The notes below the pieces were generated by a model that was given only the letters and a program-made list of their open reading frames with translations, made no database searches and was not told where the DNA came from. From the NCBI RefSeq assembly GCF_057098645.1, contig NZ_CM169472.1: a DNA stretch of 64,000 bases. One strand, written 5' to 3'. Made by a program: the position numbers and the translations under genes. Positions 41,510 to 45,470 of this stretch are shown in pieces; positions within the stretch are counted from its first letter, which is position 1, and each line of letters starts with the position of its first letter.

Positions 41510-42787
41510 ATGAAAACAACAGCAAAGCTGTCGTTCATGATGTTTGTTGAATGGTTTATCTGGGGCGCGTGGTTTGTGCCATTGTGGTTGTGGTTAAGTA
41601 AAAGCGGTTTTAGTGCCGGAGAAATTGGCTGGTCGTATGCCTGTACCGCCATTGCGGCGATCCTGTCGCCAATTCTGGTTGGCTCCATCACTGACCGCTT
41701 TTTCTCGGCGCAGAAAGTGCTGGCGGTATTGATGTTCGCAGGCGCGCTGCTGATGTATTTCGCTGCGCAACAGACCACTTTTGCCGGGTTCTTCCCGTTA
41801 CTGCTGGCCTACTCGCTAACCTATATGCCGACCATTGCGCTGACTAACAGCATCGCTTTTGCCAACGTGCCGGATGTTGAGCGTGATTTCCCGCGCATTC
41901 GTGTGATGGGCACTATCGGCTGGATTGCCTCCGGTCTGGCATGTGGTTTCTTGCCGCAAATACTGGGGTATGCCGATATCTCACCGACTAACATCCCGCT
42001 GCTGATTACCGCCGGAAGTTCTGCTCTGCTCGGTGTGTTTGCGTTTTTCCTGCCCGACACGCCACCAAAAAGCACCGGCAAAATGGATATTAAAGTCATG
42101 CTCGGCCTGGATGCGCTGATCCTGCTGCGCGATAAAAACTTCCTCGTCTTTTTCTTCTGTTCATTCCTGTTTGCGATGCCACTAGCGTTCTATTACATCT
42201 TTGCCAACGGTTATCTGACCGAAGTTGGCATGAAAAACGCCACCGGCTGGATGACGCTCGGCCAGTTCTCTGAAATCTTCTTTATGCTGGCATTGCCGTT
42301 TTTCACTAAACGCTTTGGTATCAAAAAGGTATTATTGCTTGGTCTGGTCACCGCTGCGATCCGCTATGGCTTCTTTATTTACGGTAGTGCGGATGAATAT
42401 TTCACCTACGCGTTACTGTTCCTCGGTATTTTGCTTCACGGCGTAAGTTACGATTTTTACTACGTTACCGCTTACATCTATGTCGATAAAAAAGCCCCCG
42501 TGCATATGCGTACCGCTGCGCAGGGGCTGATCACGCTCTGCTGCCAGGGCTTCGGCAGTTTGCTCGGCTATCGTCTTGGCGGTGTGATGATGGAAAAGAT
42601 GTTCGCTTATCAGGAACCGGTAAACGGACTGACTTTCAACTGGTCCGGGATGTGGACTTTCGGCGCGGTGATGATTGCCATTATCGCCGTGCTGTTCATG
42701 ATTTTTTTCCGCGAATCCGACAACGAAATTACGGCTATCAAGGTCGATGATCGCGATATTGCGTTGACACAAGGGGAAGTTAAATGA
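41510..42787 (+). CDS. yegT: MFS nucleoside:H+ symporter family transporter
   Basis: 425-aa 12-TM ORF with NupG/XapB-like organisation. Confidence 0.8.
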   Translation: MKTTAKLSFMMFVEWFIWGAWFVPLWLWLSKSGFSAGEIGWSYACTAIAAILSPILVGSITDRFFSAQKVLAVLMFAGALLMYFAAQQTTFAGFFPLLLAYSLTYMPTIALTNSIAFANVPDVERDFPRIRVMGTIGWIASGLACGFLPQILGYADISPTNIPLLITAGSSALLGVFAFFLPDTPPKSTGKMDIKVMLGLDALILLRDKNFLVFFFCSFLFAMPLAFYYIFANGYLTEVGMKNATGWMTLGQFSEIFFMLALPFFTKRFGIKKVLLLGLVTAAIRYGFFIYGSADEYFTYALLFLGILLHGVSYDFYYVTAYIYVDKKAPVHMRTAAQGLITLCCQGFGSLLGYRLGGVMMEKMFAYQEPVNGLTFNWSGMWTFGAVMIAIIAVLFMIFFRESDNEITAIKVDDRDIALTQGEVK

Positions 42788-43788
42788 AAACAGAACGTAT
42801 TCTCGGTGCTCTTTATGGGCAGGCGTTAGGGGATGCGATGGGGATGCCCTCCGAGCTTTGGCCACGCAGCCGCGTTAAAGCACACTTTGGCTGGATTGAC
42901 CGTTTTCTTCCTGGACCAAAGGAGAATAACGCGGCCTGTTATTTTAACCGCGCCGAATTCACCGACGATACCTCGATGGCGCTGTGTCTGGCGGATGCGT
43001 TACTGGAACGTGAAGGCAAGATCGATCCGGATCTGATTGGGCGTAATATTCTCGACTGGGCGCTGCGTTTCGACGCCTTTAACAAAAACGTACTAGGTCC
43101 GACCTCGAAGATTGCGCTTAACGCCATTCGCGACGGTAAACCCGTTGCTGAACTGGAAAACAACGGCGTGACCAACGGCGCAGCGATGCGCGTCTCGCCA
43201 TTAGGTTGTTTGCTTCCGGCGCGTGATGTTGATTCCTTTATTGATGATGTAGCGCTGGCGTCCAGCCCGACCCATAAATCCGATCTGGCGGTTGCAGGCG
43301 CGGTAGTCATCGCATGGGCGATTTCTCGTGCCATTGACGGAGAAAGCTGGTCAGCGATTGTTGATTCCCTGCCTTCAATTGCGCGACATGCACAGCAAAA
43401 ACGCATCACTACGTTCAGCGCCTCACTGGCAGCGCGGTTGGAGATTGCGCTGAAAATTGTGCGCAATGCCGACGGCACCGAATCCGCCAGCGAACAGCTT
43501 TACCAGGTCGTTGGCGCAGGTACCAGCACTATTGAGTCCGTTCCGTGCGCCATTGCGCTGGTTGAACTGGCACAAACCGACCCGAACCGTTGCGCCGTCC
43601 TGTGCGCTAACCTTGGCGGCGATACAGACACCATCGGTGCTATGGCGACGGCAATCTGCGGCGCGTTGCATGGCATTAACGCTATCGATCCTGCGTTAAA
43701 GGCGGAGCTGGATGCGGTAAATCAGCTTGATTTCAACCGCTATGCCACAGCGCTGGCGAAATATCGTCAACAACGGGAGGCGGTATGA
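42784..43788 (+). CDS. yegU: ADP-ribosylglycohydrolase-family protein
   Basis: 334-aa ORF; start overlaps yegT stop; acidic metal-binding residues typical of the ARH fold (GDTDT, GGDTDTIGAMA). Confidence 0.8.
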   Translation: MKTERILGALYGQALGDAMGMPSELWPRSRVKAHFGWIDRFLPGPKENNAACYFNRAEFTDDTSMALCLADALLEREGKIDPDLIGRNILDWALRFDAFNKNVLGPTSKIALNAIRDGKPVAELENNGVTNGAAMRVSPLGCLLPARDVDSFIDDVALASSPTHKSDLAVAGAVVIAWAISRAIDGESWSAIVDSLPSIARHAQQKRITTFSASLAARLEIALKIVRNADGTESASEQLYQVVGAGTSTIESVPCAIALVELAQTDPNRCAVLCANLGGDTDTIGAMATAICGALHGINAIDPALKAELDAVNQLDFNRYATALAKYRQQREAV

Positions 43789-44750
43789 GCGGCGCTCGAT
43801 TACACACGCTGCTGCCTGAATTAACCACGCGTCAGTCGGTGATGGTCGTCGGCGCGGCGGTCATTGACGTGATCGCCGACGCTTATGCCCTCCCCTGGCG
43901 TGGGTGCGATATCGAACTGAAACAGCAGAGCGTTAACGTTGGCGGCTGCGCACTGAATATTGCCGTGGCGTTAAAGCGCCTCGGCATCGAAGCGGGTAAT
44001 GCCTTGCCGCTCGGTCAGGGCGTGTGGGCGGAGATTATTCGCAACCGGATGGCAAAAGAGGGCTTAATCAGCCTGATCGATAACGCCGAAGGTGATAACG
44101 GCTGGTGTCTGGCGCTGGTTGAGCCGGATGGCGAACGCACTTTTATGTCATTCAGCGGTGTGGAAAATCAGTGGAATCGCCAGTGTCTGGCGCGATTAAC
44201 CGTTGCGCCTAGCAGCCTGCTCTATTTTTCCGGTTATCAACTGGCCTCGCCCTGCGGCGAATTATTAGTGGAATGGCTGGAAAAGCTGCAAGACGTGACG
44301 CCGTTTATCGATTTTGGCCCACGTATTGGCGATATCCCGGATGCATTACTGGCGCGGATCATGGCCTGTCGACCTTTAGTGTCGCTCAATCGTCAAGAGG
44401 CTGAGATTGCCGCCGAACGTTTTGCTTTATCCGCAGAGATAACAACACTTGGCAAACAATGGCAGGAGAAATTTGCCGCGCCGTTGATCGTTCGTCTCGA
44501 TAAAGAAGGCGCATGGTATTTCAGCAACGACGCTTCTGGCTGCATTCCGGCATTTCCAACGCAAGTTGTCGACACCATTGGGGCGGGCGACAGTCATGCC
44601 GGTGGCGTACTTGCCGGGCTGGCCTCTGGTCTGCCACTGGCGGATGCCGTATTACTGGGCAATGCAGTGGCGTCGTGGGTTGTCGGGCATCGGGGCGGTG
44701 ATTGTGCGCCAACGCGCGAGGAACTACTCCTCGCACACAAAAACGTATAG
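43785..44750 (+). CDS. yegV: PfkB-family carbohydrate/nucleoside kinase
   Basis: 321-aa ORF with C-terminal PfkB signature DTIGAGDSHAGG; start overlaps yegU stop. Confidence 0.8.
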   Translation: MSGARLHTLLPELTTRQSVMVVGAAVIDVIADAYALPWRGCDIELKQQSVNVGGCALNIAVALKRLGIEAGNALPLGQGVWAEIIRNRMAKEGLISLIDNAEGDNGWCLALVEPDGERTFMSFSGVENQWNRQCLARLTVAPSSLLYFSGYQLASPCGELLVEWLEKLQDVTPFIDFGPRIGDIPDALLARIMACRPLVSLNRQEAEIAAERFALSAEITTLGKQWQEKFAAPLIVRLDKEGAWYFSNDASGCIPAFPTQVVDTIGAGDSHAGGVLAGLASGLPLADAVLLGNAVASWVVGHRGGDCAPTREELLLAHKNV

Positions 44751-45470
44751 ATCGCTGCGACAGTGGCTAATGCTGTATTCAATAGGCCGTTGCTGTTGGT
44801 CAAGCGCCACTTGCTTGATCACCAGCACCGGTATTTTGCTATCTAACTGAATATGTGACTGAAACTCGGCATCTGGCATCCGGGCGCTAACGCGGGAACG
44901 CGTACGTTGTGGGTAAATGTGCTGGCTGCGGAAATAGTCATAAAGTGAAATCCCGATGGCATCAACATCATGAATTAAATGCGCCGGAACCCACGATTCC
45001 TCAATCGATACCGCTTCTTCATCGACATAGCGAATACGCTTAAGCAAAAAGACATCACTTCCTGCTTCGACCGCCAGCTGCTGCGCGACTTCTTCGGGAC
45101 ATTTCACGACACGCTTGTTAACCCATAGCGTATCGGGCTTTTTCCCGCGCAATACCACCTGCTGAGAAAAACCTCGCGCTTCTTTCAACGAGTATTCGAA
45201 GATGTTGTTGATCTGCGTGCCGTAACCGCGCGAACGCGTCACCACACCCTCTTCTTCCAGCGCCTGCATCGCCTTGCGCACCGTAATGCGCGAAACGCCG
45301 GTTAACTGACTTAAATCACGCTCACCGGGCAAAATATTGCCATGCTCCAGCACCCCGCTGCGCACGGCATTTTTTACCGTTTCGGCAAACTTAATATAAA
45401 GCGGCGTGTTATCCGCCGCTAAAATACGCTCGTTCAGTTGGGCAATCAGCTGGGTATGCGCTTGTTCCAT
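44724..45470 (-). CDS. yegW: GntR-family transcriptional regulator (HTH plus UTRA-like effector domain)
   Basis: 248-aa ORF with N-terminal GntR HTH; convergent with and overlapping the 3' end of yegV. Confidence 0.8.
   Translation of the reverse strand: MEQAHTQLIAQLNERILAADNTPLYIKFAETVKNAVRSGVLEHGNILPGERDLSQLTGVSRITVRKAMQALEEEGVVTRSRGYGTQINNIFEYSLKEARGFSQQVVLRGKKPDTLWVNKRVVKCPEEVAQQLAVEAGSDVFLLKRIRYVDEEAVSIEESWVPAHLIHDVDAIGISLYDYFRSQHIYPQRTRSRVSARMPDAEFQSHIQLDSKIPVLVIKQVALDQQQRPIEYSISHCRSDLYVFVCEE

Follow-up and report, generated by a model that had tools for sequence, protein, structure and literature searches.

What compound is handled by the products of yegT, yegU and yegV? All three are core genes of Escherichia coli. 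We examined them in a stretch of 64,000 nucleotides (contig NZ_CM169472.1 of assembly GCF_057098645.1, hereafter the window), where they encode a transporter, a hydrolase and a PfkB-family kinase and are met by the convergent gene of a repressor, YegW, renamed GgaR. A preliminary description of this DNA had taken the set for a module of catabolism of a ribosylated compound. That idea has gained weight on three sides: the hydrolase-kinase pair is accompanied by three alternative transporter families, PfkB and ADP-ribosylglycohydrolase (ARH) domains occur fused in one polypeptide, and YegT keeps the ribose contacts of the nucleoside transporter NupG. From this comparative evidence our leading hypothesis is a riboside pathway with an ARH-fold hydrolase.

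Gene identities and folds, a single 3.3-kb mRNA, repression by GgaR at this locus and a conserved set of hydrolase, kinase, transporter and regulator have either been published or were tested here. Beyond these data we infer a riboside as the substrate, phosphorylation ahead of hydrolysis, the bases of the operator and the nature of the inducer. YegT would bring a riboside with a non-canonical aglycone into the cell by proton symport, YegV would phosphorylate the 5'-OH of its ribose and so trap it in the cell, and YegU, as an ARH-fold, metal-dependent enzyme, would cut the glycosidic bond to give ribose-5-phosphate and the free aglycone. GgaR, sitting on an operator of GGTAT repeats over the -10 region, would hold the operon off until an effector frees it; this effector would probably be a phosphorylated intermediate of the pathway, and ADP-glucose works in vitro. 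We hold this kinase-first scheme under GgaR repression tentatively, as somewhat short of probable.

The hydrolase-kinase pair across phyla

An initial homologue search with YegU was dominated by Enterobacteriaceae sequences of >80% identity, and distant relatives were taken from a representative protein library, which held 6961 relatives, 234 of them at E<=1e-30. An alignment-seeded genome scan gave 77 loci, which stand for the 80 highest-scoring among at least 498 relatives, and the hydrolase was recovered in 70 of them among crudely called (longest open reading frame, ORF) and then clustered reading frames. The hosts comprise Enterobacterales, Vibrio, Gilliamella, Chromobacterium, Sutterellaceae, Lachnospiraceae, Clostridium, Bacillaceae, Lactobacillaceae, Dialister, Epulopiscium and Actinobacteria. 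The U-V pair has thus been kept together in Proteobacteria, Firmicutes and other groups, in organisms that are mostly host- or gut-associated.

A co-directional PfkB kinase gene was found at most 3.5 kb from the YegU homolog in 58 of the 70 loci, overlapping or separated by at most 60 bp in 46 of these 58, and a GntR regulator is present at 45/70. In Salmonella and in a Klebsiella-like contig the arrangement is identical to that in E. coli, namely T-U-V with 4-nt overlaps and a 27-nt convergent V/W overlap. The operon structure is thus retained in relatives, a point on which the preliminary description had made its reading depend. One of three unrelated transporters accompanies the hydrolase at 57 of the 70 loci. 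The nucleoside:H+ symporter (NHS) type represented by YegT was found at 26/70 loci, in Gammaproteobacteria only. PnuC-family carriers are present at 17/70 loci, in Firmicutes and in the order U>V>PnuC (PF04973, 2.5e-48; 150 bits against a cut-off of 42 bits for the NCBIfam model 'nicotinamide riboside transporter PnuC'), and an NCS1 permease (PF02133, 3.3e-41) at 15/70, often placed between U and V. The hydrolase-kinase core is constant and its transporter is swapped by non-orthologous displacement. Ribosides, nucleosides or nucleobases are the cargo of all three families, and the presence of three alternative families around one core lends the riboside reading independent support.

The two enzymes are also linked within single polypeptides: 9 of the 10 double-length YegU homologs are PfkB and ARH fusions, and both domain orders occur (PfkB-ARH in library proteins P0190, P0194, P0203, P0207, P0209 and P0216, ARH-PfkB in P0204, P0230 and P0254). 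We also considered these proteins as strict orthologs of YegU plus YegV and rejected this, as the GGCA motif of YegV-type kinases was found only in P0207. The fusions therefore tie related ARH and PfkB subfamilies together and point to a general functional link, not to strict orthology. P0161 (692 aa) instead carries two ARH domains in tandem.

Several neighborhoods differ from the common layout. A Serratia oryzae locus (L031, 5043-10624) reads W< U> NCS1> V> NHS<, with the NCS1 gene between hydrolase and kinase; its divergent NHS transporter is only 30% identical to YegT. In the loci of a kinase-less clade of YegU paralogs that is taken up below, from Edwardsiella and Serratia (L026, L028, L029, L039) and Brenneria (L023), a convergent GntR gene lies directly downstream of the hydrolase except in L023; the surroundings are what we take to be a two-component system on one side and purB-/hflD-like genes on the other. 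YegU homologs of ~40% identity in L079 (1908-5938), L060 and L076 have no PfkB kinase and adjoin an ECF transporter with an S component (PF12822) and fused ATPase and T components, together with an AIR-synthase-related ATP-binding protein (PF00586, weak match). These neighbors may resemble CblT/CblS of alpha-ribazole salvage, a lead for which NCBIfam gave no matching model.

The YegU hydrolase

YegU matches PF03747 (ADP_ribosyl_GH) with E=2.1e-66 and 225 bits against a cut-off of 26.2, over positions 1-285 of the 287 in the profile. The AlphaFold prediction, made with 24 homologs, is all-helical (predicted local distance difference test, pLDDT, 96.7; predicted template modelling score, pTM, 0.95). 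The top Foldseek matches of this model are MJ1187 (template modelling score 0.82/0.90), ARH3 and DraG, all three at a probability of 1.00, and an ARH-related protein of Thermus, with scores ranging from 0.72 to 0.90; the nearest solved relative, MJ1187, is uncharacterized. Residues E24, T60-D61-D62, D280, D282 and T283 of YegU align with E41, T76-D77-D78, D314, D316 and T317 of ARH3. Loss of the acidic metal-binding residues would have told against the preliminary description by its own account; in fact T60-D61-D62, D280, D282 and T283 are invariant or conserved to at least 90% among the 24 homologs, which reach down to 32% identity, and only E24 varies in a few of them. H164 is invariant as well and aligns with H182 of ARH3, an active-site residue that binds ADP-ribose. 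H182 presumably contacts the phosphate there.

YegU thus shares the all-helical fold and the acidic residues of the binuclear metal site with human ARH3 and ARH1, DraG, Serratia Tri1 and MJ1187, and the chemistry at C1 of the ribose is presumably alike. Substrates of the known members are ADP-ribosyl-protein, poly(ADP-ribose), O-acetyl-ADP-ribose or alpha-NAD+, and in all characterized substrates known to us the ribose that is cleaved carries a phosphate ester at 5''. YegU, in contrast to ARH3, lacks the adenine-stacking residues and is encoded within a small-molecule uptake operon. F143 and Y149 of ARH3 are replaced by Asn and Val, and S148 falls in a 3-residue insertion that YegU lacks, a comparison limited by the fact that ARH subfamilies differ in how they bind ADP. 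We propose that this ARH-fold metal-dependent hydrolase acts as a glycosidase on a riboside or a riboside-5'-phosphate.

The same family membership and intact metal site would also fit a macromolecular de-ADP-ribosylase similar to DraG, ARH1/3 or Tri1, with a role in regulation, toxin immunity or phage defence and counter-defence, and the best NCBIfam matches of YegU, weak as they are, are indeed DraG and Tri1. Neither passes its cut-off (DraG 79 bits against 337, Tri1 68.5 against 490), and no other NCBIfam equivalog was passed either. The adenine-stacking residues F143 and Y149 of ARH3 and its S148 loop are not kept, none of YegT, YegU, YegV and YegW matched a PADLOC model, and no ADP-ribosyltransferase was found among the recurrent neighbors, where transporter, sugar-type kinase and metabolite-sensing repressor recur across phyla instead. 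A silent, single-target regulon is moreover typical of catabolic genes. We therefore regard a de-ADP-ribosylase as very unlikely.

The YegT transporter

YegT matches Pfam family PF03825 (Nuc_H_symport) over residues 1-405 with E=3.5e-184 and TIGR00889 with 654.9 bits against a cut-off of 446.1, which places it in the NHS family of the major facilitator superfamily (MFS). It matches over its full length PDB entry 8ZOJ, 'Putative nucleoside transporter YegT', with a 12-helix MFS fold; this crystal structure was reported at 3.1 A (Xiao et al. 2025, PMC11979927). The GxxxD protonation motif in transmembrane helix 10 is present as G311-V-S-Y-D315, and E255 is present too. Family, fold, GxxxD motif and ribose-contacting residues are common to YegT and the E. 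coli nucleoside:H+ symporters NupG and XapB, which are NHS proteins as well. The equivalents of the ribose-contacting NupG residues R136, T140 and E264 are retained, while base-contacting positions differ (PMC8042404). Identity to NupG and XapB is only ~27%, and assays with uridine, cytidine, xanthosine and gemcitabine detected no transport by YegT (PMC11241209).

The YegV kinase subfamily

YegV belongs to PF00294 (PfkB, E=2.3e-56). The DTxGAGD signature noted in the preliminary description reads DTIGAGD (residues 263-269), and two further motifs are GGCALN (53-58) and NRQE (202-205, the NXXE motif). It stays far below the ribokinase equivalogs TIGR02152 (83.5 bits against 299.65) and NF008353 (61.8 against 341). 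We aligned 65 YegU-linked kinases with RbsK and PsuK of E. coli MG1655. The equivalents of RbsK D16, N46, N187, E190 and D255 are retained in 64-65 of the 65, and YegV accordingly shares with RbsK the PfkB fold, the NXXE and DTxGAGD motifs, the Asp that binds the ribose diol (D16), N46 and the catalytic Asp. It differs from RbsK in having Cys for K43 and Val for N14. Across the set, K43 is replaced by Cys in 61/65 and G44 by Ala in 59/65 kinases, and the position of N14 is hydrophobic (V, I, M, F or Y) in 63/65. We take N14 and K43 to be ribose ligands in the RbsK structure. Apolar residues at these positions would fit a substituent at C1, i.e. a riboside instead of free ribose. With the signature VGGCA[LYF]N, as opposed to GGKGAN in ribokinase and GGVGRN in PsuK, the YegV-type kinases form a distinct GGCA[LYF]N subfamily of PfkB kinases, and we propose that YegV is a riboside 5'-kinase.

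Comparison with known nucleoside systems

The preliminary description had suggested a comparison with the pseudouridine glycosidase/kinase pair, and the likeness holds for the layout and fails for the families. Both psuKGT (yeiC-yeiN-yeiM) and yegTUV encode, side by side, a transporter of nucleoside type, a kinase of the PfkB family and an enzyme that hydrolyses a glycosidic bond; in psuKGT itself the kinase acts first and the hydrolase then releases ribose-5-phosphate and the base. PsuG, though, has the YeiN fold and YegU the ARH fold (PF03747), so that the two hydrolases are unrelated; the psuKGT transporter belongs to the CNT family and YegT to NHS; and YegV scores 19.5 bits against the 540-bit cut-off of the PsuK equivalog, with GGCALN in place of GGVGRN. 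As the family characters of PsuG and PsuK are missing, yegTUV at most works like psuKGT and is not a member of it.

A second parallel is PnuC/NadR, in which facilitated diffusion is combined with trapping by a kinase: in Firmicutes the U/V pair is followed by a PnuC carrier above the equivalog cut-off, which suggests that transport is coupled to phosphorylation there. E. coli by contrast uses YegT of the NHS family, and its kinase is of the PfkB type and not a ribosylnicotinamide-kinase domain as in NadR. With a hydrolase in the pathway, yegTUV would degrade a cofactor and not build one.

The order of phosphorylation and hydrolysis

The opposite order was implied by the preliminary description: YegT would import the compound, YegU would release free ribose and the aglycone, and YegV would serve as a dedicated ribokinase producing ribose-5-phosphate. 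Synteny and fusions apply equally to this sequence of events, the genes stand in the order hydrolase, then kinase, and the best NCBIfam and PDB matches of YegV are ribokinases, from which the ribose-diol Asp and N46 are retained. Ribose-utilisation loci of Bacteroidetes pair ribokinases with ARH-family or nucleoside hydrolases (bioRxiv 10.1101/574913), and the kinase-less clade shows that solo action of the hydrolase is possible. YegV has nevertheless lost the ribokinase hallmark K43 (Cys in most of the linked kinases) as well as N14, in keeping with its low ribokinase score, and with RbsK a ribokinase is already present in E. coli. Carriers of the PnuC type are facilitators and rely on phosphorylation of their cargo within the cell, as in PnuC/NadR, and such a partner argues for phosphorylation of the imported riboside itself. 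Ribose does not support growth of S. Typhimurium without rbsK, deoK and rikA (PMC13432705), and S. enterica carries yegV. We consider hydrolysis as the first step plausible, if rather unlikely. The PnuC-type partners, the loss of the ribokinase residues, the 5''-phosphate in ARH substrates and the S. Typhimurium result are the four reasons for which we place the kinase first. The alignment of the invariant H164 of YegU with H182 of ARH3 also speaks for this order.

Several points weigh against the kinase-first riboside scheme. The S. Typhimurium result is confounded by repression of yegV and is a weak point. We found no report of an activity of YegU or YegV in the searchable literature. The characterized ARH enzymes known to us cut alpha-linked ADP-ribosyl bonds, and ordinary nucleosides are beta-linked. 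In Edwardsiella, Serratia and Brenneria, YegU homologs of ~62-66% identity form a clade with a GntR neighbor and with neither kinase nor transporter, and a dedicated kinase is thus not required by the hydrolase. Only one of the nine fusions carries the YegV-type motif, the sample of loci is biased toward closer relatives, and its reading frames were called in the crude manner stated above. Finally, the ADP-glucose effector of GgaR and the glycogen phenotype described below are not directly predicted by the riboside model.

Two kinds of substrate can be named within the kinase-first scheme. Since characterized ARH enzymes cleave alpha-linked bonds, one could be an alpha-riboside, for instance alpha-ribazole or another lower-ligand nucleoside of cobamides; in view of the PnuC-type partner the substrate could alternatively be the riboside of a pyridine, for instance of nicotinamide or nicotinic acid. 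In its widest form the proposal would make YegU and its relatives riboside-5'-phosphate glycosidases, the first ARH-fold enzymes shown to act on a small-molecule nucleotide instead of ADP-ribosylated macromolecules, and would join them with the GGCA kinase and interchangeable NHS, PnuC and NCS1 carriers in a phylum-spanning, largely gut-associated pathway, to which the published effects on ADP-glucose and glycogen would be secondary. This extension we see as possible but doubtful. If the riboside pathway with an ARH-fold hydrolase is confirmed, it would add a further kinase/glycosidase variant of nucleoside catabolism and a fresh class of substrates for the ARH family. Once the substrate is identified, three y-genes would have a function, small-molecule metabolism would come within the range of the ARH family, and a nutrient or cofactor fragment that gut bacteria scavenge would come to light; a direct link to glycogen could then be told from an indirect one.

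Repression by GgaR and regulatory DNA

YegW consists of a GntR domain (PF00392, residues 29-87, 3.1e-16) and a UTRA domain (PF07702, residues 108-242, 2.3e-36), and its closest solved structure is NagR/YvoA. With the HutC/UTRA repressors represented by NagR/YvoA it shares the two-domain architecture and a role as local repressor of the adjoining catabolic operon. Saito et al. (2024, PMC10819704) renamed it GgaR and characterized it by chromatin immunoprecipitation on microarrays (ChIP-chip), electrophoretic mobility shift assay (EMSA), Northern blot and reverse-transcription quantitative PCR as a single-target repressor of yegTUV. ChIP-chip revealed one bound region in the genome, the fbaB/yegT spacer; the stronger site lies at most 190 bp upstream of yegT according to ChIP-chip and EMSA, and a weaker one, confirmed by EMSA and bound at a higher dose, in nt 571-869 of yegT (PMC10819704). 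The 3.3-kb yegTUV mRNA was detected only in a yegW deletion, and expression of yegTUV rose ~30-fold without ggaR (PMC10819704).

No operator motif was given in that study (PMC10819704). Upstream of yegT we noticed a sigma-70-like promoter candidate with 9/12 consensus matches, and a series of GGTAT direct repeats with inverted copies that overlaps its -10-like hexamer (Table 1). In front of yegT, 27 of 29 gammaproteobacterial loci share a GGTA-N7-GGTA core with variable linker bases, a phylogenetic footprint that extends as far as Vibrio. Half-sites of the form GGT..ACC are typical of operators of HutC-type GntR regulators; the candidate appears to differ from a single simple palindrome in its direct repeats. 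We put the GGTAT repeats forward as a candidate operator, a small addition to the published work on GgaR.

A 20-mer search of the 64 kb with GGTATTTAAAAGGTATTATT, a pattern derived from the upstream and intragenic sites themselves, gave at up to 3 mismatches only one further match, the copy at 42317-42336 inside yegT; given this origin of the pattern, the accompanying shuffle statistic is indicative only. This copy falls within the EMSA probe of yegT nt 571-869 and, by its position and likeness to the upstream site, probably accounts for the weaker second GgaR site. We also considered it as a selected site, and rejected this, as its conservation ranks 162nd of 1256 windows overall and 98th of 419 at third codon positions. 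In Citrobacter the copy has GGC where E. coli has GGT. It is no more conserved than the encoded peptide FGIKKVLL imposes and so may be incidental. Rfam searches for metabolite-sensing RNAs gave nothing in the yeg region of the window, nor, at gathering thresholds, in 22 Firmicute and other loci.

The published interpretation of the operon is a different one: yegTUV would import, make or process ADP-glucose, and GgaR would sense ADP-glucose to set the flow of glucose to glycogen. ADP-glucose at 10-100 uM frees GgaR from the yegT promoter in EMSA and glucose and ADP do not, and in the absence of ggaR glycogen content is 2-3 times higher and growth on glucose minimal medium is poor (PMC10819704). 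A yegV deletion is listed among low-glycogen mutants, as cited in the same study (PMC10819704). The effector panel consisted of just these three compounds, with no ADP-ribose, nucleoside or nucleotide besides ADP and ADP-glucose. Induction by glucose was only ~3-fold as compared with ~30-fold upon deletion of the repressor (PMC10819704). Among the recurrent neighbors at the 77 loci we found no glg genes, and carriers of the PnuC, NCS1 and NHS types would suit small uncharged or cationic ribosides or bases better than a nucleotide-sugar. The glycogen phenotype could also be indirect, brought about by a derepressed kinase and a nucleotide-cleaving hydrolase. We therefore think it improbable that ADP-glucose is what the operon handles, and ADP-glucose may still be a genuine, if partial, effector of GgaR.

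Organization of the locus in E. coli

The features of the locus and its surroundings are compiled in Table 1. The gene limits of the preliminary description agree exactly with the ORF coordinates, and its gene identities, layout, overlaps, motifs and GntR/UTRA regulator were all borne out by ORFs, Pfam and RefSeq. ATGA overlaps join yegT to yegU (TAAATGAAAA, 42781-42790) and yegU to yegV (GGTATGAGCG, 43782-43791), and Shine-Dalgarno-like runs stand directly 5' of the starts of yegU (aagggga) and yegV (gggagg). Judging from these overlaps, yegT, yegU and yegV would be translationally coupled. As had been described, yegW converges on the operon, sharing 27 bp with the 3' end of yegV. A scan of both strands found no intrinsic terminator between yegV and yegW, and the pair is listed by ExcludonFinder, on the basis of RNA-seq, as a convergent pair with overlapping transcription (PMC12288877).

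RefSeq annotates yegT, yegU, yegV, yegW and yegX across 41000-46000, a segment that is 100% identical to several complete E. coli genomes, in which the identical four genes carry the same names. At a coverage of >=80%, 5419 of 5426 complete E. coli genomes contain the region. The four yeg genes are genuine genes rather than chance ORFs, and the locus belongs to the textbook annotation of E. coli; its operon structure and the YegW/GgaR regulator, characterized in 2024, are already known too.

Table 1. Coordinates of genes, candidate regulatory sites and flanking features in the window.
Feature	Position	Strand	Remarks
yegT	41510-42787	+	425 aa; ORF list
yegU	42784-43788	+	334 aa; ORF list
yegV	43785-44750	+	321 aa; ORF list
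yegW (ggaR)	44724-45470	-	248 aa; ORF list
yegV/yegW convergent 3' overlap	44724-44750		27 bp; both genes terminate in TAG
fbaB-yegT divergent intergenic region	41254-41509		yegTUV promoter and primary GgaR site
Sigma-70-like promoter candidate	41426-41455	+	-35 TTCACC 41426-41431, 18-nt spacer, -10 TATTAT 41450-41455
Candidate GgaR operator	41437-41489	+	GGTAT at 41437, 41448 and 41461; inverted GTACC 41475-41479 and TTACC 41485-41489
Intragenic operator-core copy	42317-42336	+	GGTATCAAAAAGGTATTATT, 18/20 identical to 41437-41456, inside yegT
yegX	45471-46349		limits of the region between yegW and thiD; yegX (GH25 lysozyme-like) lies in it, after a 51-nt gap to yegW
Extended -10-like candidate	45510-45502	-	TGATATACT, in yegX-yegW gap
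TPP riboswitch	48025-48121	-	upstream of thiM-thiD
naRNA4 match	40100-40170	-	between gatY and fbaB
Insertion relative to strain C9	36546-37876		1331 bp

Flanking features

The annotated fbaB gene (350 aa) terminates at window position 41253. On the other side of the operon, yegX sits between yegW and thiD in E. coli and is absent from Salmonella and the Klebsiella-like contig (L001 8687-8723, L002 8678-8735), where thiD and yegW share a strand as direct neighbors and yegW comes second after a gap of 35-56 nt. The yegX-yegW gap of E. coli (51 nt) holds a sequence resembling an extended -10 element. A functional link of the operon to the adjoining thiMD was also considered and rejected as mere synteny that is confined to Enterobacteriaceae. 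The thiamine pyrophosphate (TPP) riboswitch upstream of thiM-thiD scores 71 bits against a 54-bit cut-off and is known, being annotated in RefSeq as well.

Between gatY and fbaB, Rfam matched naRNA4 (nucleoid-associated non-coding RNA 4, a REP-type element) with 64.5 bits on the minus strand, against a gathering threshold of 59.5, and with sub-threshold 37.3 bits on the plus strand. Compared with strain C9 the window carries an insertion bordered by a 5-bp duplication, which contains minus-strand transposase-like ORFs of 136 aa and 301 aa and severs the last ~43 codons of gatZ. Its size, duplication and ORFs would fit IS2. Strain C9 carries IS1 in gatA, which the window lacks, and the gatZ insertion here and the gatA insertion in C9 would each inactivate the galactitol operon.

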